NCBI GenBank assembly: GCA_050250895.1
Contig: JBFWNU010000002.1
Location: forward strand, 535,659-599,658
DNA: 64,000 bases
Reading direction: 5' to 3'
Origin: Vulcanimicrobiota bacterium
GTDB taxonomy: Bacteria; Vulcanimicrobiota; Xenobia; Xenobiales; JADMJV01
Each line of letters opens with the position of its first letter. Within the stretch, counting starts at the first letter, position 1. The notes beneath the pieces are model-generated. The model saw only the letters and a program-made list of their open reading frames with translations, did no database searches and had not been told where the DNA came from. Both the position numbers and the translations under genes were made by a program. Shown here one piece after another: positions 51,101 through 63,984 of this stretch.

Positions 51101-53137
51101 AGCGCCGGCGGCCAGCGCGGCCGCCACCAGGGGAGTGGCCGTGCCGGCGGTGCCTACCACCACGGCTACCGAGGCGGCTGTGGCGGCCACCGTGCCAATG
51201 GCTTCGCCAGCGCTATCCTCGGCCTTGCGATAGGTTTCGACATCGGCATCCGAGTAGCCGAGCAGCTGGTTGAGTCGCTGCTTTTCGAGCTGGGCGTCTT
51301 CGCTGCGGCCCTCGCGCAGGGCCTGCTGATAACGCTCGTACTGCTCGTTGGCCCGGTCGGTGTTGGCATCGAGCAGCTTACCCTTGTCGGTGAAGGTGTC
51401 CATGATGGCCCGACTGGCCAGGTTGGAAAGCCCCTTGCGCTCATAGTCACGCCGCTCGTTGGCCTGCTCGAGCGCTTCTTCCACCGACTCGGCCTTGCCC
51501 TTGAGGGCCATGGTTGCGTCGAACTCGTCGCGGCCCGACAGTTCGCCTTTGAGGTCTTTGTCTAAATCGCGACCGGTCTCGGCCTGGTAATCTTGGCGCA
51601 GAGCTGCGATCTCGTCTTTAGTCTTGCCTTCAAGGACCTTCTTGATGGCCTCCTCATCGGTGCCCCAGCCGTCCATGGCGTATTTGAGCTTGGCCGCGTC
51701 GCTGACGTCGCCCTCACTCAGCAAACGGTTGGCCTTCTCGAGGTCGTTGCCGCCCATTTCGTCTTTGAAAGCGTCCTTGAGGTCAACCTTGTATTTGTCC
51801 TTATAGGCCGCCAGGATGGCGTCGCGCTCTTCTTTTGACTTGCCTTCGAGGGTCTGGAAGATCTCCTTTTCGTTGGTTCCCCAGCCGTCCATGGCATCGT
51901 GCAGCCGGGCGGCGTCCGCCTCGGCGGTCTTGCCGTCGAGCAGGCCTTCGGCCCGGGCGCGCTCGTCCTGGTTGAGTCGCTCTCCCATGCGCGAGCGCAG
52001 GGAATGACCCGTCAACTTCTGGTACTCGTCCTCGATGGCCGCCCGTTCTTCCTTGCTCTTGCCTTCGAGGGTCTTGTAGACGGCCTCTTCGTCGTCGCCG
52101 AAGATTCCCGACATGGCGTCCTGCAGTTTGGCCGCATCGGCTTTGGCGTCGTCGCCTTCGAGCAAGGAGAGAGCTTGACTCTGCTCGTTCTTGTTGAACC
52201 GTTCCTTGATGCGTTTGTCGAGGTCTTTACCGGTGAGCTTCTTATACTCTTCTTTGATTTCGGCACGTTGCTCGGCGGTCTTGCCTTTGAGGGTCTCGTA
52301 GACGGCCTCTTCGTCGTCGGTCAACCCGCTCATGGCGTCGCGGATCTTCATGGCGTCGGCCTTGGTGTCGTCGCCCTTCATGAGCGACTCGGCCCGTTGA
52401 AAGTCCTTGGTGCCGAGCTCTTCCTTGAGGTCTTTCATCAGGTCGCGGCCGTAGTGGTCGCGATAGTTCTCTTTGAGGGCCTTCATCTCTTCGGGCGACT
52501 TGCCCTTGAGGGCCTTGAAAACGGCGTCTTCGTCGGTACCCCAGCCGGTCAGGCCGCCTTTCATCGCCTCGTAGAGGTCGGTGGCGTCCCTGGTCGGGTT
52601 GTAGTTGGCCGTCTGCGTCTTGGGGTGGTCCTTGGGGGAAACGGTCTGCGGCCGCGGGGCCGGCGGTCCCTGGCGCTGTTCCTGGGGTTGGCGTTGCTCT
52701 TGCGGTTGGGGACGGGTGGGGCGTTCTTGAACCTGAGGACGTTGCCACTGCTGGGGCGGCACCCAGGGGCCAAAGAACTCTTCGTCGGGACTCTGCGGAT
52801 AAAATCCGCCGGGCATGCCGGGTTGGCCCTGCGGTTGCTGGCCTCGGGGCGGCTGGAAGAAGTAAGGAAGATCGTTGAAGGGTTGATAGAACCCGGTCTG
52901 GCCGTGGCAGGGGCATTGCCATCCCCCCTGGGCCATGCCGCTCTGCATGAAGTTCATCAGCATCTGCGAGAGCATCATGGCGTTGAAGTCGAAACCGAAA
53001 CAGGGCCCCATGGGAGGCGCGAACATGGGCGGACCCAGCAGCATCGAGGCTCCCTGATTGATTCCGCCATTCCAAGAACAGCCGCCCGCCGGACCGGCGT
53101 AGAAATTGAAATTAAGGCCGCCAGTGACCTGTTGCAT
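48119..53137 (-). CDS. 1672-aa protein: annexin repeats, hydrophobic region, 72-aa repeats, papain-like Cys peptidase
   Basis: Five AMxG(W)GTDE-type annexin repeats; QGNRGTC...LHAVN...IRNPWG triad. Confidence 0.85.
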   Translation of the reverse strand: MQQVTGGLNFNFYAGPAGGCSWNGGINQGASMLLGPPMFAPPMGPCFGFDFNAMMLSQMLMNFMQSGMAQGGWQCPCHGQTGFYQPFNDLPYFFQPPRGQQPQGQPGMPGGFYPQSPDEEFFGPWVPPQQWQRPQVQERPTRPQPQEQRQPQEQRQGPPAPRPQTVSPKDHPKTQTANYNPTRDATDLYEAMKGGLTGWGTDEDAVFKALKGKSPEEMKALKENYRDHYGRDLMKDLKEELGTKDFQRAESLMKGDDTKADAMKIRDAMSGLTDDEEAVYETLKGKTAEQRAEIKEEYKKLTGKDLDKRIKERFNKNEQSQALSLLEGDDAKADAAKLQDAMSGIFGDDEEAVYKTLEGKSKEERAAIEDEYQKLTGHSLRSRMGERLNQDERARAEGLLDGKTAEADAARLHDAMDGWGTNEKEIFQTLEGKSKEERDAILAAYKDKYKVDLKDAFKDEMGGNDLEKANRLLSEGDVSDAAKLKYAMDGWGTDEEAIKKVLEGKTKDEIAALRQDYQAETGRDLDKDLKGELSGRDEFDATMALKGKAESVEEALEQANERRDYERKGLSNLASRAIMDTFTDKGKLLDANTDRANEQYERYQQALREGRSEDAQLEKQRLNQLLGYSDADVETYRKAEDSAGEAIGTVAATAASVAVVVGTAGTATPLVAAALAAGAGAGTRVVASAAVKGGSYGVGDMGTDAAIGAVDGLATVAGMGAGKAAVAGLRASESALAGSRVAMLATEGAVDGMIGGAMSAGGAEALRDGTWDNGFGAGLQRVGMATGMGASLGAVAGGGMAAAIGGAPALVRNTRQGWDKMAAGGRRAMEMGGDLASRAGEKARVVWGQIRELDAGSRQALRRALNSGDGTGLTGHAKALWQKSRELDHAALDKLKGLWQKSRDLDHAAFDKVKGLMGGGGEGRMGQLGETAKNWYARARELDGAALDKLKGAFRTGDGSGLTGQAKALWQKSRELDGAALDKLKGLMGGGGEGGRLGQMGDTVKGWFDKATALDRRALDQLKGAFKSGDGSGLTGQARALWQKSREMDGAALDKLKGMLGGGGEGGRLGQMGDTVRGWVDKAKALDGQALDKLKGAFRTGDGSNLTGQAKALWQKSREMDAAALDKLKGMLGGGGEGGRLGQMGDTVNGWLGKARELDGQALDKLKGAFKTGDGSGLTGQARALWQKSRELDQAALGKLKGMLDGGGAPPPVLKDVPVPPPLPPVRTVADQVAGFADQPMLGRFRNIDKFREMAPDQQLKVLELANKHKPEAGFFDGIFGTAKPNRVEGNLARLAREGKLNQLDHRGQTLLDNLVELDNAPLIASLNRGQYFDEVLETVTTPGTIRQGNRGTCSGSSCQYVHAKSDPADYVRVMTGLGEESGEVTLKTGRRFYRNESGVAADNSTRRSADRIYQSTAMDHVSRRYDNNVTGSKGGVGGHLKDDGSLDYGGLSDKHARQILEDVGGRKIVDHGYSNGAKHRSDFEQLVRQAEERGEPIHATLDWFKGDPDGGLHAVNIERVDDDFVYIRNPWGADDVGQTTKNAPVRQVLDKEGRSRIAKDVFYDRLYSYRHEARPTDLMLARIENIENNMAHIGEIKDVGLDRFQRAYPEVRFPKGQEMEAMDAFRAKMLDIRKTLWSGNPSAGEMQAMVKELDEFMKPYGVPDFGTKFIA
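49520..50600 (-). repeat. 216-bp (72-aa) intragenic tandem repeat, about 4-5 copies
   Basis: GTGTCGCCCAT recurs at 49698, 49914 and 50130. Confidence 0.9.
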
Positions 53138-53232: not shown

Positions 53233-53892
53233 TCAAGTCTGGCGCCGGCGCCTGAGCACGCCCCCCAGAATGCGGGCGAAGTCCTGCCGAGCGTCGCCTT
53301 CGGTGATACCCTGGTTGGTTCGGTGGATCCGGCGTCGCACCAGCACCTGGTCCACCATCGTCACCGTAGCTCCCGCCTCTTGAGCCCGGGCATACCAATC
53401 GATAAATTCGCCCACCTTCCAACCGGTGGCGAAGGGTCCCACCCGCTCGAATAGCCTGCGCCGCGCCAGCAGAGTAGAAGGCAGTTTGCCGGGCATCGGC
53501 TCGGTGCGCACTAAATAGGGATGGTTCGGATCGAGTTCTGGGCTCAAGAATTCCTCTACCAGGGTGAAGACCAGTTCGACCTCGGGCCCCAGACTGGACA
53601 GCTGCAGCTCGAGTTTGTCCGGCAGCCAGAGGTCGTCGGCGTCGAGAAAGGCTACCAGAGGATGGTGACTCAGTTCGAGGCCCCGATTCCTGGCCGCGGC
53701 CGCTCCCGATTGGGACTGGCAGTGATAGTGCACGGGGAATTGGGCCGCCACCTGGGCGGTGCCATCGGTCGAACCGTCGTCGATGACCCAGATGTCGTCA
53801 GGCCGATGGCTCTGCGCCAGCAGGCTGCTCAGGGCTTCGGCCAGATATCGCTCTCCGTTGTGCACGGGTAGGATGACGTCGATCTTACTCAA
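53233..53892 (-). CDS. GT2 glycosyltransferase
   Basis: VILPVHNGE, DDGSTD and FLDADD. Confidence 0.93.
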   Translation of the reverse strand: MSKIDVILPVHNGERYLAEALSSLLAQSHRPDDIWVIDDGSTDGTAQVAAQFPVHYHCQSQSGAAAARNRGLELSHHPLVAFLDADDLWLPDKLELQLSSLGPEVELVFTLVEEFLSPELDPNHPYLVRTEPMPGKLPSTLLARRRLFERVGPFATGWKVGEFIDWYARAQEAGATVTMVDQVLVRRRIHRTNQGITEGDARQDFARILGGVLRRRRQT

Positions 53893-54871
53893 GGAGTTCT
53901 CTCAGCTTCTCGGCGCCGCCCGCTCGCGTGGCAAGCTCCAGGCGGTAGCAAGGCAACCGGCGCGAGAGTCGAGCCAGAGCGGCAAAGGTCGCCTGGCTGT
54001 CTCCAGGCAGTTGGAAGACCGTGCTCGGGGCCAGAGCCAGCAGAGCTTGGGCGGGCGTTACCGGGGTGAGAACGTCCTTTTGGCCCAATTGCGGCATCAC
54101 GATGGCTCGCAGACCGAGTCCGTCCGCCAATCGGTGGCCCTGGGAGCGGGCCAGGAAGGTCACGGCTTTGGGCTCCTGGTCGGAATTCATCGGCTCAAAC
54201 CACGGAAAGTGAGGCAAATCGTGACGATGCAGCTTGGCGGAGCAATACAGACCGTGCACCAGTAGTTGCTCGATGTCGACCAGGCAATAATCCTCGCCCA
54301 CGAACTCGAGGCCCGCCTCGAGGCTGGCCAGGGCCAGATTGGATTTGCCCGAGCCGCCTCGACCGGGCAGCAAGACGGCCACCCCGGCCCGGCCCACCGC
54401 CGCCGCATGCAGCATGCACTTCGAGCGGCTGCCTAGCAGCCGACTAAAGATCACTCGAAAGGGCGCGGCCAGCTCGTAATAAGGAAGGCGTTCGGCGGCC
54501 GGAGCCCAGTAAAAACCGTGACCGGTTTCCAGGTCTATCATCCGCAGCAATTGTTCTTCCCCCTCGAACACGGTCAAGAACCGGGCATCCGACATGTCCT
54601 CGATCCGGGCGCGCGGCCCAAAGGACTGGGGCCTCCAAGGCGGCGAGGGCAGAGGCGCCTGGGCGCCGTGCCAGGCGAAGATAGTGAAGTCAGCCTGTGC
54701 GCCCCCGCTAGCATGGTGGGCCAGGGCCGGCAGGAGCTTTGCGGTGAGGGGCTCGGCCAGAGCCAGTTCGACGGTCAGGTTGGCGATGACCAGGCGATGA
54801 CGGGTCAGGGCCAGCTCGGCCAGCACCTCACGACAATCTTCGGCGAACCGTTCGGCCAGACTGACTACCAA
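53885..54871 (-). CDS. HPr-kinase-related P-loop kinase
   Basis: LHAAAV, GRGGSGKS and VGEDY. Confidence 0.85.
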   Translation of the reverse strand: MVVSLAERFAEDCREVLAELALTRHRLVIANLTVELALAEPLTAKLLPALAHHASGGAQADFTIFAWHGAQAPLPSPPWRPQSFGPRARIEDMSDARFLTVFEGEEQLLRMIDLETGHGFYWAPAAERLPYYELAAPFRVIFSRLLGSRSKCMLHAAAVGRAGVAVLLPGRGGSGKSNLALASLEAGLEFVGEDYCLVDIEQLLVHGLYCSAKLHRHDLPHFPWFEPMNSDQEPKAVTFLARSQGHRLADGLGLRAIVMPQLGQKDVLTPVTPAQALLALAPSTVFQLPGDSQATFAALARLSRRLPCYRLELATRAGGAEKLRELLE

Positions 54872-55767
54872 CGGCTGACCACCCGTCGCCAGAGATACCC
54901 GGGCAAGCCCACCAGGATATCAGCCCAACGACTCGGACAGCCGCGCAGGTACTCGCGCACGAACCCCAGCCTGAATCGCACGGCCCATTCCCCCAGTTGC
55001 TCGAAGAGATCCGGGTCGAGGGAGAGCGGCGGGTTACAGGACCAGGGGGCCAGCCTCTGCAGACCGGTCCGCACCTGGCTGGCCACCCGGCGCCGCCGCG
55101 CTTCGCAGGCCAGCAGCTCCCAGTCAATCGGGTGGCGGCGGTTCAGTTGCACCGCATCCACTCCCCACCAGGGCTCTTCCTGGCGCACCAGACTGAGCAG
55201 CAGGGCATCGCTGGGGCATGGCCGCCACAGCGGCCGGCCCAGCCAATGAAAGCTCTCGGCTCGCTCGAGCAAGCCCCGGTCGGCCTCGCTCCACCGGCAT
55301 TCAGTGAGTGCGTGCCAGCGCAGCACGAGCGGCGTTTGGCCCCGTTGATAAAGACAGCTCGAGCCTTCCTCGGGGCGGGCCACCGGCGGGCCGCCGCTCC
55401 AACCTCGTTGCTCGAGCAAGCGAGCGCAATGCCAGCGTTGCTCGGGTGTTATCAACACCGAGAGATAGAGACAGGGCCGCCAGGACTCGTCGGAATAGGC
55501 CTGGGTCATCAGGGCCGCGTCTCCGGTCGCCAGCCAGCGCACCGCGGCGAACAGCTCGGCGACCTCTTCGAGGTCTTGCTTGACCAGTTGGGTTCGGGTG
55601 AAATAGTAGCGGCGCAAGCCCGTTAGGCGCGGATGCTCGTGTTGTTCGCGAATGGCCAGCATGGGCAAAAGGGAATGCAGGCGTGGGTCGAGTTCGTCGA
55701 GCCAATCGAGAGGACCGGGTTGCGCCGGCCCGAGCAGTCTATGCCAGAGGGTTTCGAGCTCACTCAC
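54865..55767 (-). CDS. Nucleotidyltransferase-5-like protein (degenerate)
   Basis: Paralog of 58327-59349, but KG becomes TG and RPMSDID becomes RPCLYLS. Confidence 0.7.
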   Translation of the reverse strand: MSELETLWHRLLGPAQPGPLDWLDELDPRLHSLLPMLAIREQHEHPRLTGLRRYYFTRTQLVKQDLEEVAELFAAVRWLATGDAALMTQAYSDESWRPCLYLSVLITPEQRWHCARLLEQRGWSGGPPVARPEEGSSCLYQRGQTPLVLRWHALTECRWSEADRGLLERAESFHWLGRPLWRPCPSDALLLSLVRQEEPWWGVDAVQLNRRHPIDWELLACEARRRRVASQVRTGLQRLAPWSCNPPLSLDPDLFEQLGEWAVRFRLGFVREYLRGCPSRWADILVGLPGYLWRRVVSRW

Positions 55768-56494
55768 CGACGTGACGCTCTTCCAAGAACCGTCGCACCT
55801 CGGCGTCCTGGGCGACCAGGCTCAACCTGGGTAAGGATTCGGCTTTGCCCCGACGGCGGCGACGGTCGAGCGAGTGCTTCAAGGCGCGAGCCAGATGCTG
55901 CCCGCTGAGATAAGAGTCGGCCGTCATGTTGTCGGGATGACGTCGATAGTGCAGGGCGATCCGGCTAGAGATCTCGAAGCGCCGCCCTTGCTCGCGGATT
56001 CGCATGAACCAGTCGACATCTTCGGACATGGGCAGCTCCTCGTCGATGAGCCCCACTGCCTCGAAGAGGCTTCGCCGGCACACAGCCGCCCCGAATTGAA
56101 AACCGACCACCGGCTCGCTAAACTGCTTGAGCCCTTCCCATCGAATGCGGCCCAGCACCAACTCGAGGGTAGGGTCGGCCAGCAGCCGGCCCACCTGCCA
56201 GTCGAGCTTGCCAGGGGGCCACAGGTCGTCATCGTCGATAAAAGCGACCAACTCGCCCGACGAGGCTTTAATGCCACGATTGCGGGCGGCCGAGGGCCCC
56301 TGATTGGCCTGGCTCAAGTAGACCACCTGGGGACAAGCCTCGGCCACCTGCCGGGTGTCATCGGTCGAACCGTCGTCGACCACCACGATCTCCAGGGGAT
56401 GATAGTTTTGAGCCAGCACGGATTCCAGCGCCTGGGCAAGAGTCGCCTCGCCGTTAAAGACAGGCACAATCACGCTTAAGCTCGGTCCGGTCAC
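55760..56494 (-). CDS. GT2 glycosyltransferase
   Basis: VIVPVFNGE, DDGSTD and FIDDDD. Confidence 0.93.
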   Translation of the reverse strand: MTGPSLSVIVPVFNGEATLAQALESVLAQNYHPLEIVVVDDGSTDDTRQVAEACPQVVYLSQANQGPSAARNRGIKASSGELVAFIDDDDLWPPGKLDWQVGRLLADPTLELVLGRIRWEGLKQFSEPVVGFQFGAAVCRRSLFEAVGLIDEELPMSEDVDWFMRIREQGRRFEISSRIALHYRRHPDNMTADSYLSGQHLARALKHSLDRRRRRGKAESLPRLSLVAQDAEVRRFLEERHVGE

Positions 56495-56548
56495 GGCGCG
56501 TTTATTCGTTGGGAGGCATCCCGGAACCCTGGTAGAAGGTCCCCTTTT

Positions 56549-58330
56549 TTGGGCGCAGAACCTTTGACCGTGCGGCGTTACCTGGCCACTCTGCTAGAGC
56601 CCGGTTCGGCTCGAGGGTTGTTCGGGCTGTTGGTGCTGACCGTCTTCACCTCGGTGCTCGAACTGGTCAGTCTGGGGGCCGTTTTGCCCTTTATGGGTCT
56701 GGTAGTCCAGCCCGACCTGCTGTCCAAGTTTCCGACCCTCGAGGACTTCCTGGCTCGCCACCAGTTGAGTCACCACGAGCTGTTGGTGGCGGTCGGTTCG
56801 GGCATGGTGGTAGCCGTCATCTTGACCAACATCATGGCGGTGGTGATGGCCAACCGGGCCCAGCGGTTCACCGCCGACCTGCATCTGAGGCTGGTCACTC
56901 GTTTGTTGCAGGGGTTCCTGAGCCAACCCTACAGCTGGTTTCTCAACCGCAATACAGCCGAATTGGCTCGCCACGTCGAGGCTGTCGAAGCGGTGACCCG
57001 GGGGGTCTTCGAACCGGCCCTGCGGCTGGCCACCCGGGTCGGCAGCATGGTGCTGGTGATGTTGATGCTGCTACTTTACGATCCGTTGCTGTTGCTTTTG
57101 ATGGGGTTGGTGCTGGGCGGTCTCTACGCCGGCGCCTATGTTTATTGCCGTCACCGGGTGCAGGCCCTGGGTCAGCAGACCTGGGCCGCCCAACGCGAAG
57201 TCAAGCTGGCCACTCACCGGGCCCTCGAAAGCGCGCGAGAAGCGCGGCTTGGGGGCTTCGAAGAGTTCTTCGTAGGGCGCGTGTTGGACCCGGTGGAGCG
57301 AGTTCAAACCATGGGTGTGGTGCGCTCGACCCTGGAAGCCGTGGCTACCTATCTGACTCGCACGATGGTGATTCTTGGTTTCTTGCTGACCACGCTCTAT
57401 CTGGTCGTCCGCTATCCCGCGCCCGAGCACGTCATTCCTTTGTTGGGGCTCTACGCCCTGGCCGGTTACCGTCTGATGCCGACCCTGCAGTTGGCCTTTC
57501 AGAGCTTCACGCTAATTCGTTCGAACCTGACGGTGACGCGGGTGCTGGCTGAGGACCTGGAACAATCGCCGCCCCAGGTCGGGGGTCCGCAGTTGGCCGG
57601 ACTGGCTTTGACCGAGGGGGTCGCCCTCGAAGAGGTGGTCTTTGGCTACGGAGAGGAACCTTGGCTGGATGTCTCGTTGCGCATCCAGGCCGGCACCCGG
57701 GTCGGTCTGGTGGGGCCTACCGGCGCCGGAAAATCCACCCTGGTGGCTCTGCTGTGCGGTCTGCTCACGCCCACCCGGGGTCGACTCCTCCACGACGGAG
57801 AGCCTCTCGAAGGGCAGCGGCTGCGGCGCTATCAAAAGAGCATCGGGTTGGTTCCTCAACATATCTATCTGCTCGACGACACCCTGGCTCGCAATATCGC
57901 CTTTGGGGTGGCCGACCACGAGATCGACGAGCAGCGGTTGTGGGAAGTGCTGGCTCTCACTCAACTCGAGGAATTCGTGCGCACCCTACCCGATGGGTTG
58001 CACACCTCCCTGGGTGAGCGAGGGGTGCGCTTTTCGGGGGGGCAGCGCCAACGCGTGGGGATCGCCCGGGCCCTGTACCCAAAACCGCAGATTCTGATTT
58101 TCGACGAGGCTACGAGCAGTCTCGACCACCGCACCGAAGGGCAGGTCACTTCGGCCATGGCGCGGGCCACCCGCGACTGCACGGCGGTGGTGGTGGCCCA
58201 TCGTCTGGCCACGGTCAAGGATTGCGACCTCATTCATGTCATCGAGAACGGTCGCCTGACCGCCTCGGGAACCTATGCCGAGTTGGCCGATCGCTCGCAA
58301 GCTTTTCGAGAGATGGCCGGGTTGGCATGA
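56549..58330 (+). CDS. ABC exporter (TMD+NBD)
   Basis: TM helices, GPTGAGKS, FSGGQRQR and FDEATS. Confidence 0.95.
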   Translation: MGAEPLTVRRYLATLLEPGSARGLFGLLVLTVFTSVLELVSLGAVLPFMGLVVQPDLLSKFPTLEDFLARHQLSHHELLVAVGSGMVVAVILTNIMAVVMANRAQRFTADLHLRLVTRLLQGFLSQPYSWFLNRNTAELARHVEAVEAVTRGVFEPALRLATRVGSMVLVMLMLLLYDPLLLLLMGLVLGGLYAGAYVYCRHRVQALGQQTWAAQREVKLATHRALESAREARLGGFEEFFVGRVLDPVERVQTMGVVRSTLEAVATYLTRTMVILGFLLTTLYLVVRYPAPEHVIPLLGLYALAGYRLMPTLQLAFQSFTLIRSNLTVTRVLAEDLEQSPPQVGGPQLAGLALTEGVALEEVVFGYGEEPWLDVSLRIQAGTRVGLVGPTGAGKSTLVALLCGLLTPTRGRLLHDGEPLEGQRLRRYQKSIGLVPQHIYLLDDTLARNIAFGVADHEIDEQRLWEVLALTQLEEFVRTLPDGLHTSLGERGVRFSGGQRQRVGIARALYPKPQILIFDEATSSLDHRTEGQVTSAMARATRDCTAVVVAHRLATVKDCDLIHVIENGRLTASGTYAELADRSQAFREMAGLA

Positions 58331-59349
58331 GCGACCACCCCTTGCTTTTGCAGGCGGCCTTCGCCAGCGAGCCAGAACTGGCGCGGCAGAGCTGGGAGCA
58401 GTGGCTCGAACTGTTCGGCCATCAGGTGCTCGACAGCGATCAGACGCGATTGTTGCCGCTGCTCTATCGTCGCCTCGGCGCTCAGGTGCCGGGCGCTGGC
58501 GTGCTCAAACACTGCTACCGCCACGCCTGGTCGCGCTCGCGCCAATTGCGCCGCCAGACGGTGGAACTGGTGACCGAACTCAACCAGGTGGGGGTGGTGC
58601 CGATCTTGCTCAAAGGCGCTGCCCTGGCCAATTTCGTCTATCCCGACCCGGCTCTGCGGCCTATGAGCGACATCGATCTCTTGATCGCCCCGGCCGATTG
58701 GGAAGTTGCCTGGCAGCGCCTCGAGCAGCTGGGCTGGCGCTATTGGGGCTGGGCTAGCCATACTTACACTTTCAGTGATTCCGAGGGCCATGAACTGGAT
58801 GTGCACCGTTACTCGGTGCCAGAGTGTGTCTGGCCCGAAGCCGACCGCGAGTTTTGGCGACGCAGCCGCGAGGTCGATCTCGAGGGGGCGCGGGCTCGCA
58901 TTCTGGGCCCCGAGGACCAGCTGCTGCACCTGACCCTTCACGCCGTGCGTTCGCCGGGGCGCTGCCTGGTGGCTGACGCCCTCACCCTGCTCGGGAACCA
59001 TTGGCTCGACTGGGATGCCTTCTACGCTGAGGCACGGGCCCGCCGGGTGTTGGGCCAGGCGGTGGAAGGGGTCCAGCAGCTGGGGCACTGGCATGCCTGC
59101 CCCGCCGCGCCAAGGCTGAGCTGGCGCGAGCAACTCGAACACCGTCTGGCGGTGCGGGCCCGCAGCTGGGTTCCAGCCAACTACCTCTGGCAGTATCTGC
59201 TCTATTGCCGGGGCCACCGCCGGCGCGGCTCGCTACGGCTCTTCTTGCGCGAGCTCTGGGGGGTTCGCCCCGAGCAGACCCTGGTCGCGAGGTTGGTCGA
59301 GAAAATCATCGCGCGAGGAGGCCGGTCCTCGGGAGCGAAGCGAGGTTGA
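58327..59349 (+). CDS. Nucleotidyltransferase family 5 protein
   Basis: LLKGAAL, RPMSDIDLL and ELDVH. Confidence 0.88.
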   Translation: MSDHPLLLQAAFASEPELARQSWEQWLELFGHQVLDSDQTRLLPLLYRRLGAQVPGAGVLKHCYRHAWSRSRQLRRQTVELVTELNQVGVVPILLKGAALANFVYPDPALRPMSDIDLLIAPADWEVAWQRLEQLGWRYWGWASHTYTFSDSEGHELDVHRYSVPECVWPEADREFWRRSREVDLEGARARILGPEDQLLHLTLHAVRSPGRCLVADALTLLGNHWLDWDAFYAEARARRVLGQAVEGVQQLGHWHACPAAPRLSWREQLEHRLAVRARSWVPANYLWQYLLYCRGHRRRGSLRLFLRELWGVRPEQTLVARLVEKIIARGGRSSGAKRG

Positions 59350-59780
59350 TGACCGAGTTGAGTTATGAGTTGAGACGTCCGGATGTCGTGAGTGAAGAGA
59401 TCGAGGGCGAAGTCGTGGTGGTCCATCTGGTGAAAGGCCTGTATTACAGTCTTCAGGGCAGTGCCGCTGCCATCTGGGAGCAGCTGCTGCTCGGGGTGCC
59501 GGTGCGTGAAGTCAGCGAGCGTCTGGCGCCTCGCTATTCCGTCGAGCGGCCGCTCCTGGAACAGGCCGTGGTGGCGTTCGCCGAGCAGGTCCTCTCGGAA
59601 GGGCTGCTGGTCGCGCGCACCGCTCCCCCCAGCTTGCCTCCGGCCCGTCACCATGGGCGGGCCGAGGATTTCCAGGCCCCCGTGCTCGAGCGCTTTGACG
59701 ACATGCAAGAACTGCTGGTGCTCGACCCGATCCACGAGGTCGATGAGTCGGCCGGGTGGCCCCATCGCCGGGCTGTTTGA
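59349..59780 (+). CDS. PqqD/RRE domain fused to a C-terminal leader/core-like peptide
   Basis: EEIEGEVVVVHL..GLYYSLQGSAAAIWEQL RRE; tail FQAPVLERFDDMQELLVLDPIHEVDESAGWP. Confidence 0.88.
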   Translation: MTELSYELRRPDVVSEEIEGEVVVVHLVKGLYYSLQGSAAAIWEQLLLGVPVREVSERLAPRYSVERPLLEQAVVAFAEQVLSEGLLVARTAPPSLPPARHHGRAEDFQAPVLERFDDMQELLVLDPIHEVDESAGWPHRRAV

Positions 59781-60639
59781 TCTTTTAGCCCGCGCCGAGC
59801 AGTTTTGGTCGAGCCAGCGCGAGTTGGTCTGGCGACACTTTTCCGTCGCTGGCGAGCACCTGCGCGTCGGCAGTCCCGACAGCGAGCTGCTAGAGCGGCT
59901 GACCTGGGCGCTGGGTCCCGCCGAGCCTGGCCCGAGCGGCCTCGAGGTCAGACTCTGGTCCGGATCGCCCGAGCTGGTCCTGGAAGAGAGCTGGCGCCAG
60001 GCCCGCGGCGATTGTCCCGACTTTGGGCCGGGCCGGCTGACCCAGTGCGGGCCCGAGGCGCCGGTCTGTCTGTGGCAAGAGTCGCTCGCCTACTATTGGG
60101 TCCCGGGCCGGCTCTCGGACCACGAGCTGGGAGCTCCCTTGCGCACGGCCATCTATCTGTGGCTGGCCCGACAGCAGCGCCAACTGGTGCATGCGGCCGC
60201 CGTCAGTCGCGATGGACGAGCGGTGCTCATCGGGGGTCGGGGCGGCAGCGGCAAGAGTTTTCTCTGCCGGCACCTGGAAGGCTGGTCTTGCCTGGGCGAT
60301 GACTATGTGGGGCTGGGCCCGGGCGCGGTTTACCCGGTTTATCGTTCGCTCAAGCTCGATGGCCAGCTCGAGCGCCTCGAGCCTGCGGCCCCGGCCACCC
60401 TGGTGGGAGGTTTGCTGTTGGGGGCGGACGAGGGTCCGGCGCCGGTTTCGCGGCTGGCGCGGACGATCGGAGCCAGCACCCTGCTGCTGTTGCCGTGGTC
60501 GGACGCTGGCGACCTGGCCCGCATCGGCTCGGCTTTGAACGGGTTGCCCTGCTGGGGTTTGCCGGTCCGTCCCTCGGTCAAGGTGGTCCACCGCTGGTTG
60601 GCTCGGTTCTTTGACGCTTGCGGTCCAGCGAACGTTTGA
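59743..60639 (+). CDS. HPr-kinase-related P-loop kinase
   Basis: VHAAAV, GRGGSGKS and LGDDY. Start is uncertain. Confidence 0.8.
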   Translation: MSRPGGPIAGLFDLLARAEQFWSSQRELVWRHFSVAGEHLRVGSPDSELLERLTWALGPAEPGPSGLEVRLWSGSPELVLEESWRQARGDCPDFGPGRLTQCGPEAPVCLWQESLAYYWVPGRLSDHELGAPLRTAIYLWLARQQRQLVHAAAVSRDGRAVLIGGRGGSGKSFLCRHLEGWSCLGDDYVGLGPGAVYPVYRSLKLDGQLERLEPAAPATLVGGLLLGADEGPAPVSRLARTIGASTLLLLPWSDAGDLARIGSALNGLPCWGLPVRPSVKVVHRWLARFFDACGPANV

Positions 60640-61273
60640 GCACGGTGGCCAGCAGACGATTGTGCTCGACCATCGAGGTGTTGTCAGAGTGAACGCGTTT
60701 GTCGACCACCACGGCGTCGAGCATGACCCCTTCGACCCCCAGGTCACCGGCCCGAGCGAACCAGTCGACGTCGTGGGCGTTGGGATAGGCCGGGTCGAGC
60801 AGGCCCACTCGCTCGAAGGCGCTGCGATGAGCCAAGAGGGTCTCCATGATCTTGCCCGGATGCTCGCCCACCAGGAGCTTGGGGCGAAAGCCCGCGGGAG
60901 TCTGGCTGCCTTCCAGAAAGAAGCGAACCTTTCCAGTGGCAAACAGGCAATCCGGGCGGGCCCGCAGGGCCGCTAGCTGGTCGGCCAGCTTGTCGGGGCG
61001 ATAGAGGTCGTCGTGGGACAAAAACGCGATCCACTCGCCTCGAGCCTGGTGGATGCCGGTGTTGTAGGCGTCGGGGAGAGTGTCACCATGTTGGGGCATC
61101 CAGCGACAAAGCGAGGACTGCTCGGCAATCTGGCGCGAGCCGTCGGTCGATCCGCCGTCGACCACGAGGACCTCGAGAGGGCGATGGGTCTGGGCCTGGA
61201 TGCTGGCCAGGGCCTGGCCGAGGAAAGCCTCACCGTTCTTCACACAGACCACCACCGAAATCAGCTCGCTCAT
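60578..61273 (-). CDS. GT2 glycosyltransferase
   Basis: VCVKNGE, DGGSTD and FLSHDD. Confidence 0.9.
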   Translation of the reverse strand: MSELISVVVCVKNGEAFLGQALASIQAQTHRPLEVLVVDGGSTDGSRQIAEQSSLCRWMPQHGDTLPDAYNTGIHQARGEWIAFLSHDDLYRPDKLADQLAALRARPDCLFATGKVRFFLEGSQTPAGFRPKLLVGEHPGKIMETLLAHRSAFERVGLLDPAYPNAHDVDWFARAGDLGVEGVMLDAVVVDKRVHSDNTSMVEHNRLLATVLKRSLDRKRQRTEPTSGGPP

Positions 61274-62130
61274 CGCCGCAACCATCGCTTCCAGAAGCCG
61301 GCGCGGCAGCTGTGGCGCGGCTCCCAACCCAGCAATGCAGAGGCCTTGCGGTTGCTAAACCAGGCCTGATAGCCCTGCGGCGGGGGCTGAAAGGTGTCCA
61401 GCCAGCCCGGCAGGCCCCGTTCGAAGAGAGCGCGCGTTTCGACCGAAGCGGTGGTGTCGCTGGCCAGCAAGTAGACGGCGGAAAACGATGGAGGAGCGGC
61501 CAGGGAGAGGTAATCTTCGCAGGCTCGATGCAGGTCGCGCAAATCGAGATAGTGCCACGGGTCGATCAGGTATCCCTCGCGCAGTTGGCCAGGACCGCGG
61601 TGGGGGAGGTAGGAGTCGGTCCGCTCGGGCTCCCAGACGGCGGCCAGACGCAGACACAACACCGACATCGAGGTCTCTTGCGAGAATTGCTCGAGGAATT
61701 TTTCGCAACCGAGCTTACTGCGGCCATAGTCGTCCTCGGCGTGGCAGTCGTCGCTTTCGTCGAAGGGCAGCCGCCGAGGCTTGAACAGGCGGGGGTAGGG
61801 CTGGTACTCGCCCTGCCCCTGGACGTTGATAGTGCTGGCCAGAACGAACCGCTCGACACCCGCCTCGGCGGCCGCCCGGGCCAGGTTCTCGGTGCTGACC
61901 AGATTGTTGGCGTAGGTGTCGGGCCCCGGGTGGGGCGTGCCCGCAAAGTGAAACACCGCCTCGGTGCCGGCCACTGCCCGGGCGCAAAACCCTGGTTCGC
62001 TCAGGTCTCCCACCAGTCGCTGGGTCGGCCCGGGACGCCGATCGGCGCAGACCACCCGGTGATTACGCTCTAACAGCGGACGCAGCCTCAAGCCGATCCG
62101 TCCCGCATCCCCGGTGAACAGCAACTTCAT
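61270..62130 (-). CDS. NAD-dependent epimerase/dehydratase
   Basis: TGDAGRIG and YGRSK. Confidence 0.9.
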   Translation of the reverse strand: MKLLFTGDAGRIGLRLRPLLERNHRVVCADRRPGPTQRLVGDLSEPGFCARAVAGTEAVFHFAGTPHPGPDTYANNLVSTENLARAAAEAGVERFVLASTINVQGQGEYQPYPRLFKPRRLPFDESDDCHAEDDYGRSKLGCEKFLEQFSQETSMSVLCLRLAAVWEPERTDSYLPHRGPGQLREGYLIDPWHYLDLRDLHRACEDYLSLAAPPSFSAVYLLASDTTASVETRALFERGLPGWLDTFQPPPQGYQAWFSNRKASALLGWEPRHSCRAGFWKRWLRR

Positions 62131-62144: not shown

Positions 62145-63548
62145 CTAAGAGGCGCTCTGAACCTGTTCCTGGGCCTGCTGGAGCCGGCGGGCCCCCCGTA
62201 AGAGTAGCGACAGGCCACGCTCGAGCGAGAGGTCTTGAGGCACTTCCACCTGGGCCAGGGTCTGCACCGCCAGTTCGAGATCATCGAGAGCGCCCAGATA
62301 GAGCCGGCCTTCGCTGGGCGCCTCGTCGGCGGGCACCAGCTGGCGGGCCTTGGAGATGGCCGCCTGAAACTGGCTCAAGCGCTCGGTCAACAGCGACAGC
62401 GGAGAAGTGCCCTGCTGAAAGCCCAGGCAGGCCTGGCGCAGCTTGAGGATGTTCTCATATTCCGTGCCCTCCTGTTCATCCTCGGACAGGTCCAGCAGGT
62501 GCCGGTCGGCGCCTTGAATGGCCGGCAGCTTGACGGTACAGTGGGAACACAGGCGCCGGTGGAGAGCGTTGAGGTAGCCGCAAGAGGGGCAGGGGGCCGT
62601 CCCTTCGCGGGCGGCGACTTCTTGCAGGTGGGCCATCTGAGCATCGAGTCGATTCTTCAAGTCGCGCACCGGGCCGGCCAGATCGACCTCTTCGGCCTCT
62701 TCGACCGCTTCGGCGATAGCCAGCATCGTCTCGTCGAATTCGGCCAGGGTGTCGCCGATGGCGGCGCTGATTTCGCGAGTCTGGTGCCAGGCTTCGGCGG
62801 CCGCCGCCGTCATCTCGAAGCGTGAGGCCAGCCGGCGTACCTCGAGCAGCGCTCCCTCGACGGCCAGCAGGATGACCTCGGGGTCGGTCTGGGCCTCGAG
62901 CGTCTCGAGCAGACGGCTCACTCCCCACAGCCCCCCCTCGCGGACCCACTCGGCCGCCACCTCCGCGGTGGCGGCCAAGCGCTGGAAGGCCTGTTCCAGT
63001 TCGAGCCCGCCCAGGTCGGTGGCACCTCTGGCCCAGTCCTGCAGCGCTCGCAGTGCCTCGACCAGGCGAGCGGCCGAAGGCGGCCCTCCCTGACCGGACA
63101 GCCTTGCCTCCAATTCTCGCAAGTGGTGGTCGAGCAGTTGGCTCAGTCCGAATTCGAGGCTGGCGCCGCCCAGATAGCGACGGCCCGATTCGAGAATGCG
63201 ATTGACCCAGGCGATGGGGGTGGGGCCGTGGGCCTCCCACATGGCATCGCGAAAGGCCAGCGCCCATTGATTGACTTCGGCGTGGACCTGGCGTAGCTCG
63301 AGCAGGGCCTGGCGTGGAGATTCGGACTCGACGGCCGCCTCGGCCAGATCCTGGCAGCGGTCGAGGCGCGAGGTGATCTCTTCGAGATAGGGCTGCATGG
63401 CTTCGACCATCTCCTCGGGGTGGGGCTCGAGGGCGGTCTCGAACTGGCCCAACCACTGGCCCAGCCCATCCACGAACGCCTCGAGCAGGGGGCGGGCTTC
63501 GGCTTCGCCCTTGAGAACGCGCTCTAATTGAGCCTCGAAAGGATTCAT
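62145..63548 (-). CDS. Helical hypothetical protein with a zinc ribbon
   Basis: CPSC...CSHC. Start MNPFEAQ. Confidence 0.75.
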   Translation of the reverse strand: MNPFEAQLERVLKGEAEARPLLEAFVDGLGQWLGQFETALEPHPEEMVEAMQPYLEEITSRLDRCQDLAEAAVESESPRQALLELRQVHAEVNQWALAFRDAMWEAHGPTPIAWVNRILESGRRYLGGASLEFGLSQLLDHHLRELEARLSGQGGPPSAARLVEALRALQDWARGATDLGGLELEQAFQRLAATAEVAAEWVREGGLWGVSRLLETLEAQTDPEVILLAVEGALLEVRRLASRFEMTAAAAEAWHQTREISAAIGDTLAEFDETMLAIAEAVEEAEEVDLAGPVRDLKNRLDAQMAHLQEVAAREGTAPCPSCGYLNALHRRLCSHCTVKLPAIQGADRHLLDLSEDEQEGTEYENILKLRQACLGFQQGTSPLSLLTERLSQFQAAISKARQLVPADEAPSEGRLYLGALDDLELAVQTLAQVEVPQDLSLERGLSLLLRGARRLQQAQEQVQSAS

Positions 63549-63624
63549 ACCCGCTGCGAGGGTTCGGGATAGGGCCTTGTTCGCCTTCCAGGAGGCCTCG
63601 GGACTCACAGCAAAGAGGAGCAGC

Positions 63625-63984
63625 ATGCAGCAACTGATCGAGGAACTCAAGGCTCTGCACGAGGGCGTGCTGGGCCAGCCCCTGGTGGAGGAGCGTGAGC
63701 CAGAAAGGGTGTTGGCCCGACTGCGGGCCGGCGAGTCTGACTTTCCGCTCGCCTTGCGCTGGGATGACCAGCCCCACTCGGTGGTGGTCGAGTCGTTACG
63801 TTCTGAGCGGGTGTTTTTCTTCAACCCGATGCAGGCCGAGGATGTCCAGCCGGGCACTTTGCTCGGCGGGACCCGGGACGGGCCCCGTCGTCGCTCTGAA
63901 GAAGACGGCCTCGAGAGCGTTGCAGTGGAAGACTTTCGAGCGCTTTTTAGTCAGCGTCAGGCGGTTTGCCTGGTGCCCGGCTAG
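63625..63984 (+). CDS. Hypothetical protein
   Basis: RBS GAGGAG before ATG 63625. Confidence 0.7.
   Translation: MQQLIEELKALHEGVLGQPLVEEREPERVLARLRAGESDFPLALRWDDQPHSVVVESLRSERVFFFNPMQAEDVQPGTLLGGTRDGPRRRSEEDGLESVAVEDFRALFSQRQAVCLVPG

Follow-up and report, generated by a model that had tools for sequence, protein, structure and literature searches.

The gene cluster at positions 53233-62130 of the analysed stretch of DNA (64 kb, referred to as the window) is one copy of a cassette that is spread over many bacterial phyla. A preliminary description of this DNA had listed ten genes, and all of them were recovered at their positions by ORF listing, Pfam and NCBIfam: three glycosyltransferases (GT2), two each of HprK-like P-loop kinases and NTP_transf_5 proteins (NTases), plus one MsbA/PglK-like ABC exporter, one SDR epimerase and one PqqD/RRE protein. 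We tentatively propose that the C-terminal tail of the RRE protein replaces a precursor as the substrate or primer of phospho-glycosylation, so that a lasso-B1-type RRE would carry the peptide itself. Gene content, conservation, domain fusions, folds and a leader-type motif were observed and are detailed below.

The RRE-tail protein (143 aa; 59349..59780, forward strand; PF05402, E 1.7e-11) has a lasso-B1-type RRE (residues ~1-90) that a variable linker joins to a conserved tail (family alignment A1). Its RRE matches TbiB1 in sequence (E 5e-8) and in fold (TM 0.87). The closest solved structures are TbiB1 (5v1v/5v1u) and TfuB1 (6jx3), with TM 0.85-0.87 and 30-32% identity. Lasso B1 RREs bind YxxPxL leaders (a motif cited in the available text of PMC13381572), and the RRE-tail protein contains a motif of the same kind ([FYW]xxPxL, lasso/LPP type) in cis, F108-Q-A-P111-V-L113-E-R-F116 (59670..59696, forward strand). 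While the leader is a separate chain for TbiB1 and TfuB1, it is modelled within the same polypeptide here. The aromatic position is F, Y or W in 112 of 116 relatives, and P+2 is L in 103 of them. AF2 predicts a strand at residues 112-116, in a block with pLDDT 88-93, and the motif is modelled, on the basis of secondary structure and pLDDT, as folding back on its own RRE as an extra strand. Relatives with tandem RREs have an own FxxP motif after each RRE.

The 55-residue C-terminal extension is the best-conserved region of the protein in the family alignment. After the leader-type motif, it continues as a conserved free tail, D117-D-M-Q-E-L-L-V-L-D126-P-I-H129-E-V-D-E-S-A-G136-W-P138 plus HRRAV (59697..59777, forward strand). 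The family consensus is DMQELLLLDPIHEVDExGWP (in a broader form, [FY][TS]DMx[DE]LLLLDPIH[ED]VDxxGWP); beyond GWP, the sequence closes with a short hydrophilic stretch that varies. Residues D126, P127, H129, G136, W137 and P138 are invariant (alignment A1), and the full tail motif occurs in 137 of 147 representatives. The AF2 pLDDT is ~50 over tail residues 121-143. At P+6, directly after the leader strand, Thr/Ser is found in 114 of the 137 representatives (83%) and another residue in 23, including Asp/Glu in 12; in the set of closer relatives, 41 of 116 have a residue other than Thr/Ser. The window protein has Asp117 at this position, and Ser, Thr and Tyr are all absent after GWP. The tail is internal in 8 of the 137 representatives, with more than 40 residues following it, which makes release and export of the tail improbable for these proteins.

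A separate precursor gene was not found, neither in the window nor in 80 homologous loci. There is only one tail motif in the window, and every one of the 80 loci has exactly one, invariably within the RRE gene. In the 80 loci, neither the region upstream of the RRE gene nor the cassette itself yielded a conserved small ORF; judging from example sequences, those small-ORF clusters that are conserved seem to be shadows of large genes, in another frame or antisense. A lasso cyclase (Asn_synthase), a transglutaminase-type B2 peptidase and an S24/S26 (signal) peptidase were not found by Pfam among the 11 cluster ORFs and the 36 ORFs of window positions 1-53146, so that the reported absence of a lasso cyclase and a leader peptidase holds within the 64-kb window. 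Likewise, Pfam scans of 12 homologous loci showed no cyclase, B2 peptidase or signal peptidase I, and no protease was found in the cassette (cluster ORFs and these 12 loci). The earlier idea that the RRE protein itself is the modified species is strengthened by its leader-type motif, its highly conserved tail and the lack of a separate precursor in these searches.

The RRE-tail profile retrieves 1439 clusters (50% identity) at E<=1e-30, and the tail pattern has at least 599 matches in species genomes, of which at least 530 are relatives confirmed by tblastn. The cluster is not unique; it belongs to a very widespread cassette. The 80 retained loci represent a dozen phyla or more according to their record titles. 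A neighbourhood analysis of homologs of the RRE-tail protein had been suggested, and it returned the same neighbours (HprK-like kinase, NTP_transf_5 and GT2, all within 9 kb of the RRE gene) in 30 of the 35 context-rich loci, for which reason the grouping is more than chance. The genes are usually arranged as RRE-tail > HprK > GT2 > GT2 > NTase (> ABC). Parts of the cassette are also linked by fusions: HprK-GT2 in seven loci, an ABC exporter behind an NTP_transf_5 domain (NTase-ABC) in locus L033, and RRE-tail-RRE-RRE-HprK in P0043, P0047 and P0052, among others.

In the window, the reported overlap of start and stop codons, and with it translational coupling, was confirmed in the sequence for most junctions, and the remaining gaps are below 100 bp. 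Direct reading gives ATGA between the ABC exporter and the second NTase (58327-58330), TGATG between this NTase and the RRE gene (59347-59351) and ATGA between GT2c and the SDR gene (61270-61273), where the GT2c start codon (ATG 61273) lies on the SDR stop codon. Overlaps of 7-8 nt (55760-55767, 54865-54871 and 53885-53892) assume the longest-ORF starts, and an overlap of 38 nt between the RRE gene and the gene for HprK-like kinase 2 holds if the latter starts at ATG 59743.

HprK-like kinase 1 (328 aa; 53885..54871, reverse strand) is the copy that comes closest to the kinase found singly in most related loci, and its relatives were detected in 66 of the 80 loci (tblastn). Its PF07475 match (19 bits) is below the gathering score. 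HprK-like kinase 2 (298 aa from the inferred start at ATG 59743; 59743..60639, forward strand) matches no Pfam family at gathering score and is a divergent paralog (26% identity to kinase 1). Kinase 1 has conserved residues H155, G173/G175/K176/S177 (P-loop) and D193/D194 in a 52-sequence alignment (A2), and kinase 2 likewise has the H, the P-loop and the DD that are invariant in A2. A complex model of kinase 1 with the RRE-tail protein scored 0.79, compared to 0.01 for the best control. This mark is attained by 116 of 157 solved complexes and by 2 of 215 mismatched pairs, counts that are only approximate because the alignments of this analysis were used. Three runs share at least 73% of the contacts, and the partner pLDDT is at least 79. 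The modelled interface takes in P-loop residue 171 on the kinase side and residues 116, 118-120 and 122-124 on the tail side. The kinase is thus modelled as docking on the RRE and on the beginning of its tail; the model speaks to docking likelihood, with catalysis outside its reach.

Of the two NTP_transf_5 proteins, the second (340 aa; 58327..59349, forward strand; PF14907, E 6e-39) is PsmN-like and has intact DxD and DVH motifs in the family alignment. Its AF2 model (pLDDT 90) matches MenT1, LnuA and ANT(2'')-Ia in Foldseek, and its fold matches include PDB entries named for PsmN in the available text of PMC6993621. In the first (300 aa; 54865..55767, reverse strand; PF14907, E 4.7e-10), LYLSVL replaces the family SDIDLL (DxD) and LVLRW replaces LDVHR, so that it is probably catalytically dead. 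Both reported NTase genes are present, but one copy is degenerate. The window copy of the cassette is atypical: its P+6 residue is Asp, it has two kinases, and of its two NTases one is intact and the other degenerate.

The three GT2 enzymes are GT2a (219 aa; 53233..53892, reverse strand; PF00535, E 8.5e-27), GT2b (244 aa; 55760..56494, reverse strand; PF00535, E 4.5e-33) and GT2c (60578..61273, reverse strand; PF00535, E 7e-24). Among the 67 loci with GT2 matches, the best match is of the GT2a type in 52, the GT2b type in 46 and the GT2c type in 24, so that GT2a is the type most often retained. The ABC exporter (593 aa; 56549..58330, forward strand; PF00005, E 4e-31; PF00664, E 7.6e-8) is a fused TMD-NBD protein devoid of a peptidase domain. 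Its best NCBIfam matches (PglK, NHLP exporter, MsbA and HepA) are each below cut-off, and relatives occur in 32 of the 80 loci (tblastn). The NAD-dependent SDR epimerase/dehydratase (286 aa; 61270..62130, reverse strand; PF01370, E 8e-16) is an accessory member, with relatives in 4 of the 80 loci (tblastn) and Pfam epimerases in L027, L019 and L068.

If the RRE tail is the substrate, the [FYW]xxPxL motif would fold back and add a strand to the RRE, followed by the flexible, nearly invariant tail. The HprK-like kinase would then dock on the RRE sheet and the tail start and phosphorylate the tail, most likely at the Thr/Ser of P+6. The PsmN-like NTase would add a sugar or nucleotide to the tail phosphate, two or three small GT2 enzymes would extend this to a short, conserved glycan, and the ABC exporter, where encoded, would carry the product or the released glycan out of the cytoplasm. 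The chemistry of every step is inferred by analogy to the homologous paeninodin, pseudomycoidin and LPP systems, as are the acceptor residue and the identity of what is exported. Both a linear phospho- or glycopeptide and a peptide-primed glycan, as initially suggested, are still compatible with the evidence, with their chemistry resting on these analogies.

Several observations speak against the tail as a substrate. The tail lacks a hydroxyl residue common to all relatives, and the window protein has Asp117 at P+6, yet there are two kinases with intact catalytic residues. No protease was found in the cassette (cluster ORFs and 12 loci), and searches of the 35 context-rich loci revealed an MsbA-type exporter in only 18. 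RiPP cores are usually far less conserved than this tail, and such a conservation pattern suits a docking motif. In addition, the LPP NTase LppN was inactive in a heterologous system, as stated in the available text of PMC13381572.

It is less probable, though worth serious attention, that the RRE-tail protein is a permanently leader-loaded RRE rather than a substrate, with an invariant tail that brings the kinase, NTase and GT2 enzymes to the exporter and activates them there. These enzymes would assemble and cap a lipid-linked or free surface glycan, in what would essentially be a polysaccharide pathway with borrowed RiPP-type recognition parts. The tail is conserved as an interaction motif would be, lacks a universal acceptor residue and is internal in the multi-RRE-HprK fusions, and the HprK-GT2 and NTase-ABC fusions suggest a single assembled machine. 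Glycan-type accessory genes, which also count against the tail as a substrate, occur in some loci (Pfam, 12 loci): GT4, epimerase, sulfotransferase and acyltransferase (AT3-SGNH) genes, and Wzm/Wzt (with Wzt_C in L052) or a Polysacc_synt flippase in place of an MsbA-type exporter. Related LPP and paeninodin clusters lie within capsule loci (according to the text available from PMC13381572). However, an initiating phosphoglycosyltransferase, a polymerase and a chain-length gene were not found by Pfam in the cluster and the 12 loci, and the few GT2s are orthologs from one phylum to another, whereas surface-glycan loci are variable. The characterized relatives of the kinase and NTase all act on RRE-bound peptides, as far as covered by the available text of PMC13381572 and PMC6993621. 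An adaptor role also leaves the prevalence of Thr/Ser at P+6, adjoining the modelled P-loop contact, without explanation.

A precursor (lasso, LPP or other) encoded elsewhere in the genome, with the cluster as a tailoring and export island and a tail that only modulates binding, appears improbable. In its favour, the RRE belongs with those of lasso B1 proteins, and kinase, NTase and exporter correspond to the paeninodin/LPP tailoring set; moreover, 64 kb cover only a portion of the genome, and BLAST easily misses short precursors. On the other hand, the RRE groove is filled by the protein's own motif in the model, and the 12 Pfam-scanned loci lack the processing enzymes, just as the 80 loci lack a conserved small ORF and a second tail-like motif. 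That an ordinary GT/ABC polysaccharide cluster merely adjoins unrelated RRE, kinase and NTase genes is hardly credible: GT2, ABC and epimerase genes are ubiquitous and their NCBIfam matches generic and all below cut-off, but this is contradicted by the neighbours conserved across many phyla, the interleaved and translationally coupled genes, and the kinase-GT2 and NTase-ABC fusions.

The closest known systems are the Bacillota LPPs and pseudomycoidin tailoring, and the cassette is read here as a further, distinct system of this type. LPP clusters combine an RRE, an HprK kinase, an NTP-transferase plus an exporter resembling MsbA and, like the window cluster, have no cyclase (Popov et al., Nat Commun 2026, PMC13381572, available text). 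With their publication, a cyclase-less RRE/kinase/NTase pathway is less novel than had been supposed. The same text gives a recognition motif ([Y/W]xxPx[V/L]) of the type found in the tail protein and, as for the cassette, a location among sugar-pathway genes; it characterizes the LPP product only as far as phosphorylation. LPPs differ by a signal-peptidase-I-like leader peptidase (none found in the window or the 12 loci) and a separate precursor of 35-200 aa (YxxPxVLxHQxIxFETxxS; none found here), whereas the cassette has the motif fused to the RRE, followed by the invariant DPIHEVD..GWP tail, and GT2 genes as core members. LPPs are described there as restricted to Bacillota, while only one of the 80 loci is titled Clostridia. 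LppB resembles the window RRE only weakly (9x8z, E 0.61, compared to 5e-8 for TbiB1).

The background on HprK/NTase tailoring that had been invoked is in print (PMC6993621, available text): HprK-type kinases phosphorylate Ser, and the NTase PsmN is required for a hexose on the phospho-Ser phosphate. PsmK (HprK family) and PsmN belong to the same families as the cluster kinases and NTases, and the proposed modification of the RRE tail shares the paeninodin/pseudomycoidin logic of phosphate first and hexose on phosphate second. Their substrate is, however, a cyclase-made lasso precursor with the phosphate on the C-terminal Ser, while the window cluster lacks a cyclase, a B2 peptidase and a separate precursor, and its tail lacks a C-terminal hydroxyl residue. 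ABC-dependent glycan pathways (PglK, MsbA, Wzm/Wzt) share the exporter type and small soluble GT2s with the cassette, but their initiating transferase and lipid-carrier enzyme are absent from it, and they have no counterparts of its RRE, kinase and NTase.

HPr kinase/phosphorylase shares the His, the P-loop (GxxGxGKS) and the DD of its C-terminal domain with the cluster kinases. It has marginal sequence similarity (1knx, E 0.18) and differs in N-terminal domain and substrate; the cluster has no PTS context. Ser46 of HPr lies at a helix start and is followed by hydrophobic Ile-Met, and the tail [TS]-D-M, with which a short predicted helix begins, presumably resembles this site, which may serve as a lead. 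The best NCBIfam matches of the cluster kinases are to the 'HPr-rel-A system' (TIGR04352, TIGR04353, TIGR04355), families not mentioned in the papers found within the literature searched. TIGR04352 matches kinase 1 with E 4e-13 and kinase 2 with E 1e-8, and HPr-rel-A scores are far below cut-off (49 bits for kinase 1, and further scores of 35 and 28 bits, where the cut-off is 200; 26.7 where it is 35). The RRE of one relative (L076) has a weak TIGR04353 match.

The cluster (53233-62130) consists of ten genes in three transcription blocks. The first minus-strand block encodes the glycosyltransferase GT2b (55760-56494), NTP_transf_5 copy 1 (54865-55767), the kinase HprK-like 1 (53885-54871) and GT2a (53233-53892). 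Divergent from it across a 55-bp gap, the plus-strand block encodes an ABC exporter (56549-58330), NTP_transf_5 copy 2 (58327-59349), the PqqD/RRE protein (59349-59780) and a second kinase, HprK-like 2 (59743-60639). A convergent minus-strand block holds an SDR epimerase (61270-62130) and GT2c (60578-61273). All ten assignments are backed by Pfam and NCBIfam. This gene content and the overlapping start and stop codons had been proposed in the preliminary description, and both are confirmed by ORFs, Pfam/NCBIfam and reading of the sequence (ATGA at 58327-58330, TGATG at 59347-59351, ATGA at 61270-61273). Every junction in the cluster is overlapping or shorter than 100 bp, and the GC content is that of the remaining window.

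A scan for promoters and terminators returned 5 terminator-like sites, fewer than in shuffled sequences (mean 14). A promoter-like site (53224-53195, minus strand) between GT2a and the downstream annexin gene hints that the latter is a separate unit with its own promoter. The annexin giant and the flanking 170-aa and 570-aa proteins were considered as members of the cassette (RRE protein, HprK-like kinase, NTP_transf_5 protein, GT2 and, in part, ABC exporter) and were left out because tblastn found relatives of them in none of 80 homologous loci. A hairpin followed by a T-run (59753-59779, plus strand) lies over the last RRE codons and the region in which HprK-like 2 is proposed to start. It may be due to chance, given that terminator-like sites are rarer than in shuffles, or it could reduce read-through into the second kinase.

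The PqqD/RRE protein has 143 residues, and the Pfam match spans residues 21-87 only. The RRE fold is followed by a variable linker and a C-terminal extension (the tail), hence RRE-tail protein. In an alignment with 42 close relatives, all of 130-162 aa, the extension is better conserved than the RRE: P111, D126, P127, H129, G136, W137 and P138 are invariant, and residues ~90-107 are variable. The consensus of the extension in 116 unique relatives is [FYW]-x-x-P-x-L-x-x-[YF]-[TSD]-D-M-x-[DE]-L-L-L-L-D-P-I-H-[ED]-V-D-x-x-G-W-P, with 2-20 variable hydrophilic residues after GWP. The full tail motif occurs in 137 of the best 147 new representatives from a profile search. Its first six positions are of the type [Y/W]xxPx[L/V], the leader motif bound by the RREs of lasso peptides and of the linear polyphosphorylated peptides (LPP) of Bacillota (PMC13381572).

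A B1-type RRE, as in lasso clusters, is recognizable (NF033536 lasso_PqqD_Bac, E 2.8e-10, below cut-off). The nearest solved RREs are the lasso B1 proteins TbiB1 and TfuB1 (fold TM 0.85-0.87 by Foldseek; for TbiB1, sequence E 5e-8 and TM 0.87). AlphaFold2, given the family alignment, models the protein with a mean pLDDT of 86 and confidently through residue 120; residues 112-116 (VLERF) form a beta-strand, and residues 121-143 are at a pLDDT of ~50. We infer from this model that the leader-type motif would bind its own RRE in cis, leaving the invariant DPIHEVD..GWP tail free.

The sixth residue after the proline of this motif (P+6) is Thr/Ser in 114 of 137 representatives (Asp/Glu in 12, other residues in 11) and in 75 of the closer set of 116 (Asp in 21); the window protein has Asp. 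P+6 was rejected as a universal phosphosite because Thr/Ser is not found in all relatives. It is most likely the phosphosite in the majority of them. Further towards the C-terminus, 57 of the 116 relatives have Lys as the third residue past GWP. The end of the tail is duplicated as GWPMPKSETAA-WPTPKSETAA in one homologous locus (L034, 4423-4887) and repeated as GWPN..DKK.WPTRNPD in two others (L026 and L027, from 10001). Judged from these sequences, WPxxK could be a second functional unit of the tail.

We tentatively favor, at somewhat under an even chance, the reading that the tail of the RRE protein is itself the peptide acted upon. The kinase would phosphorylate it near the leader strand, the NTP_transf_5 nucleotidyltransferase (NTase) would add a phosphate-linked sugar, the GT2s would extend this sugar, and the product would be exported where an ABC exporter is present. 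We infer all of the chemistry in this and in the other readings, and both structural statements are models.

Both window kinases are recognized through weak matches only (TIGR04352 with 49 and 34 bits, where the cut-off is 200; PF07475 below the gathering score). Membership in the HPr-rel-A system (TIGR04352/04353/04355) was rejected on account of these scores, and the window RRE has no TIGR04353 match. NCBIfam returned nothing above cut-off for the RRE-tail proteins, kinases and NTases of the window and of four homologous loci (L049, L007, L076, L027). The features of the HPr kinase/phosphorylase superfamily are nevertheless all present, namely the catalytic His, the P-loop GxxGxGKS and Asp-Asp, and the alignment with 1knx/1ko7 spans this stretch. 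Among 52 sequences (both window kinases and 50 relatives), H155, G173, G175, K176, S177 and D194 do not vary, D193 is kept in at least 90%, and a C-terminal stretch (ALAPST..QLPG) is conserved as well. HprK-like 2 shares 26% identity with HprK-like 1 and retains the catalytic residues.

A model of the complex between HprK-like 1 and the RRE-tail protein scored 0.79 (median of three runs), with the best control at 0.01. This mark is attained by 116 of 157 solved complexes and by 2 of 215 mismatched pairs, counts that are only a rough benchmark because own alignments were used for the complex model. Contacts agree to at least 73% between runs, and the pLDDT of the partners is at least 79. On the kinase side, the modelled interface comprises residues 272-304, 86-87 and the P-loop residue 171; on the RRE side, it comprises strands 10-34 and tail residues 116, 118-120 and 122-124, so that residue 117 (P+6) is flanked by contacts. 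The model supports a probable binding of HprK-like 1 to the RRE-tail protein. We know of no solved RRE-kinase complex, and the similarity of the window kinase to solved HPrK/P is marginal (E 0.18); a pass through a memorised structure therefore seems unlikely.

One kinase, from Novosphingobium (L007, 10417-11442), has a weak match to FomB, a family of phosphonate-monophosphate kinases (E 1e-7; 31 bits, with the cut-off at 400). FomB phosphorylates an already present phosphate or phosphonate. Such a reaction is reminiscent of the polyphosphorylation reported for LppK, the LPP kinase, and for PsmK, the HprK-family kinase tailoring the lasso peptide pseudomycoidin.

Two NTase-5 proteins had been described for the cluster. 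Both genes exist; copy 1, however, has lost the DxD (metal site) and DVH motifs kept by the family and is probably inactive. Copy 2 (PF14907, E 6e-39) has the SDIDLL motif and thus the DxD metal site, together with a pol-beta-type NTase fold. Its sole match in a PDB sequence search was 1npb, at chance level (E 0.12), and a fold search was therefore used. The model (pLDDT 90) matches MenT1, LnuA and ANT(2'')-Ia in Foldseek, and the matches include 5cfs and 4xje. The pseudomycoidin authors cite the latter two structures for the NTase PsmN; in their work, PsmN is needed to add one or two hexoses to a phosphorylated serine, and a D134A/D136A mutant is inactive (PMC6993621). In the window, the DxD-less second NTase (54865-55767, minus strand) and the divergent second kinase (59743-60639, plus strand) stand alongside Asp at P+6.

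The family is large. Among 1.84 billion representatives at 50% identity, 24,343 proteins match its profile at E<=1e-3, of which 1439 pass E<=1e-30. Contigs from one genome per species were searched by pattern, followed by confirmation as relatives; at least 530 of the 599 pattern matches listed were confirmed. According to the record titles, the 80 loci kept stem from Acidobacteriota, Chloroflexota, Cyanobacteria, Nitrospirota, Gemmatimonadota, Pseudomonadota, Desulfobacterota-type bacteria, Actinomycetota, Verrucomicrobiota, Planctomycetota, Bacteroidota, Abditibacteriota and others, with Clostridia represented once. The family is also present in cultured strains, among them Oscillatoria sp. 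PCC 10802, Scytonema hofmanni UTEX 2349 and Novosphingobium sediminis NBRC 106119. The highest identity to the window RRE-tail protein among the 80 loci is 46%.

When searched by tblastn with the window proteins, the 80 loci, many of them truncated, contain GT2 in 67 cases, HprK-like 1 in 66, NTase copy 2 in 56, the ABC exporter in 32 and the SDR epimerase in 4. The 35 context-rich loci (at least 6 kb on both sides) contain GT2 in 34, HprK in 32, NTase in 30 and an MsbA-type ABC exporter in 18 cases; tblastn and HMM matches were merged for these counts because the greedy ORF caller mislabels genes in high-GC loci. Kinase, NTase and GT2 occur together in 30 of the 35 (exceptions: L032, L036, L048, L065, L066). 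The most frequent gene order is RRE-tail > HprK > GT2 > GT2 > NTase (> ABC). Since most loci carry one kinase and one NTase, the duplication of both in the window is unusual. Three types of orthologous GT2 can be distinguished (a in 52, b in 46 and c in 24 of 67 loci), usually in the sets a+b, a+c or a+b+c. A Pfam scan of 12 related loci (143 of 155 ORFs, those below 85 aa being left out) revealed accessory genes for GT4, epimerase, methyltransferase, sulfotransferase, AT3-SGNH acyltransferase and a SPASM protein, and other exporters or flippases (Wzm/Wzt in L052 and L019, a Polysacc_synt flippase in L056).

Several of these components are fused. HprK-GT2 fusions of ~600 aa occur in seven loci (L015, L017, L022, L027, L028, L033, L073; L027 confirmed). 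L033 also has a complete NTase-ABC fusion, in which the NTase occupies what we take to be the place held by peptidase domains in peptide exporters. Proteins of ~780-850 aa (P0043, P0047, P0052) combine RRE-tail, two further RREs and a kinase. In shorter proteins (270-400 aa) there are two or three RREs, every one with an FxxP motif of its own behind it, and a single full tail. The tail is internal, with more than 40 residues following it, in 8 of 137 representatives. A 1426-aa ORF in L038 (NTase-ABC-HprK-GT2) was not counted, as it may be an assembly artefact with truncated matches (ABC_tran 1-80/137, GT2 1-93/168).

The reported absence of a lasso cyclase and a leader peptidase holds for the 11 cluster ORFs and 36 further ORFs across 1-53146. 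In these and in the 143 ORFs of the 12 loci, Pfam detected no Asn_synthase-like lasso cyclase, no transglutaminase-type B2 leader peptidase and no S24/S26 or signal-peptidase-I-like peptidase. The window has a single copy of the tail motif, and so does each of the 80 loci, in every case within the RRE gene. An all-against-all BLAST of 10,675 ORFs of 20-130 aa from the 80 loci and the window, a test of low sensitivity for short divergent peptides, yielded no conserved precursor-like small ORF; judged from example sequences, the clusters resemble other-frame or antisense shadows of the GT2, kinase, RRE and ABC genes. Among 206 same-strand ORFs ending at most 450 bp upstream of, or at most 30 bp into, the RRE gene, [YWF]xxPx[LVIFM] occurs in 3, none apparently conserved. 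A short-protein search with residues 100-143, of low sensitivity as it requires exact shared words, returned no stand-alone tail peptides. Motif count, small-ORF clustering and junctions agree that a separate precursor is probably absent near the cassette.

The LPP family is the closest described system (PMC13381572). It comprises an RRE, the kinase LppK (which polyphosphorylates core Ser3), the NTase LppN (for which no activity was seen), an MsbA-like pump, a leader peptidase resembling signal peptidase I, and a precursor encoded separately, is located within capsule loci, and is stated there to be restricted to Bacillota (PMC13381572). The cassette shares with it an HprK-like kinase, an NTP-transferase, an MsbA-like exporter and the motif type, a likeness at the level of families. 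In contrast to LPP, the cassette is devoid of peptidase and separate precursor, has the motif fused to the RRE with an invariant tail added, includes GT2s as core members and is found in many phyla. Of the LPP precursor motif YxxPxVLxHQxIxFETxxS, the cassette tail shares only [FYW]xxPxL and, in some relatives, H-Q/T at P+5/P+6. Its RRE is also not a discrete LppB-clade RRE, having a 55-residue extension and matching LppB (9x8z) at E 0.61 versus 5e-8 for TbiB1 in pairwise comparison. Because of these differences, we consider the cassette as likely working in analogy to LPP and pseudomycoidin tailoring, and as a member of neither family. Lasso clusters differ by their C cyclase, B2 peptidase and separate YxxPxL-leader precursor with core, none of which was found for the window cassette. 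Loci for ABC-dependent surface polysaccharides encode initiating and lipid-linked assembly genes; Pfam gave no match to an initiating phosphoglycosyltransferase or lipid-linked assembly gene in the scanned window ORFs or the 12 loci, although such a gene may reside elsewhere. RREs fused to GT2 domains have been noted, in the accessible part of that article without the cassette (PMC12710340; mSystems 2025). No description of the RRE-tail family was found in literature covering few subscription journals, and the LPP supplements may list non-Bacillota or fused forms.

The main rival to a modified tail, which we consider rather unlikely, is that the RRE-tail protein, loaded with its own leader, serves a glycan pathway as an adaptor. 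This role would fit a tail that is extremely conserved and, in some representatives, internal, and a cassette that has no protease but does have accessory genes and exporters of glycan type. It would also fit the lack of a universal acceptor residue and the Asp at P+6 in the window itself; Thr/Ser in most relatives accords with the tail as substrate. It is tempting to speculate, at odds that are clearly poor, that the protein is a dedicated primer or carrier on which glycans are assembled, much like undecaprenyl phosphate but soluble. The kinase would then phosphorylate the residue right after the self-bound leader strand (possibly giving an acyl phosphate where this is Asp, as in the window), the NTase-fold enzyme would attach the first sugar via the phosphate, and the GT2s would assemble a short conserved oligosaccharide. 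The phosphodiester-linked glycan would be passed to the ABC exporter and the carrier reused. A precursor encoded elsewhere in the genome, beyond the 64-kb window, is more doubtful still; the scans near the cassette speak only to its surroundings. A chance neighbourhood is contradicted by conservation and fusions and is hardly credible.

Ribosomal peptide pathways of any class are mined by way of their RREs, with a separately encoded precursor being assumed. The RRE family described here is large, spans many phyla, has the recognition motif built in along with an invariant tail, and is accompanied by a kinase, an NTase of the PsmN type and a small set of orthologous GT2s. If the tail is the substrate, the newly described Bacillota-only linear phosphopeptides would be extended to a pan-bacterial system, the unexplained PsmN/LppN enzymes would gain a defined, always co-encoded acceptor, and the recurrent, unexplained association of RiPP-type genes with sugar and capsule loci may gain a concrete chemistry, phosphate-linked glycosylation. 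If it is an adaptor, this would be a natural case of a cis-fused leader switching RiPP-type enzymes to a non-peptide job. A carrier would imply a pan-bacterial pathway in which phosphoglycans are primed on a protein and which has taken its recognition parts from RiPPs.

Some other genes of the window deserve mention. Directly downstream of GT2a, on the same strand, a 1672-aa protein (48119-53137, minus strand) contains four or more annexin repeats (PF00191, E 2e-52), which are rare in bacteria. It has a Pro/Gln/Gly-rich N-terminus, an Ala/Gly-rich middle, about six 'GQAKALWQKSRELDxAALDKLKG' repeats and a C-terminal 426 aa with no Pfam match. On the other flank, an ORF of at most 570 aa (62145-63857, minus strand; its true start probably shortens it) stops 14 nt before the SDR gene begins. 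It has a zinc-ribbon-like stretch (CxxC...CxxC), no Pfam/NCBIfam family and no relative in the 80 loci. A 912-aa ORF (9133-11871, plus strand) with von Willebrand A and ADP-ribosylglycohydrolase domains overlaps an opposite-strand 615-aa ORF (7813-9660) with high GC3 and no family. A T2SSE/MshE-type secretion ATPase with a C-terminal CBS pair (32753-34870, plus strand) and an apparently lone YscJ/FliF-family ring protein (19309-20904, plus strand) are surrounded by two tandem-Usp proteins, HMG-CoA reductase, wax-ester synthase, FtsH and a Lon-like protease. A pair of ORFs for luciferase-like monooxygenases, one on each strand (44528-45694, minus; 45467-46759, plus), shares ~230 nt when called from stop to stop; the true starts probably lie further in.
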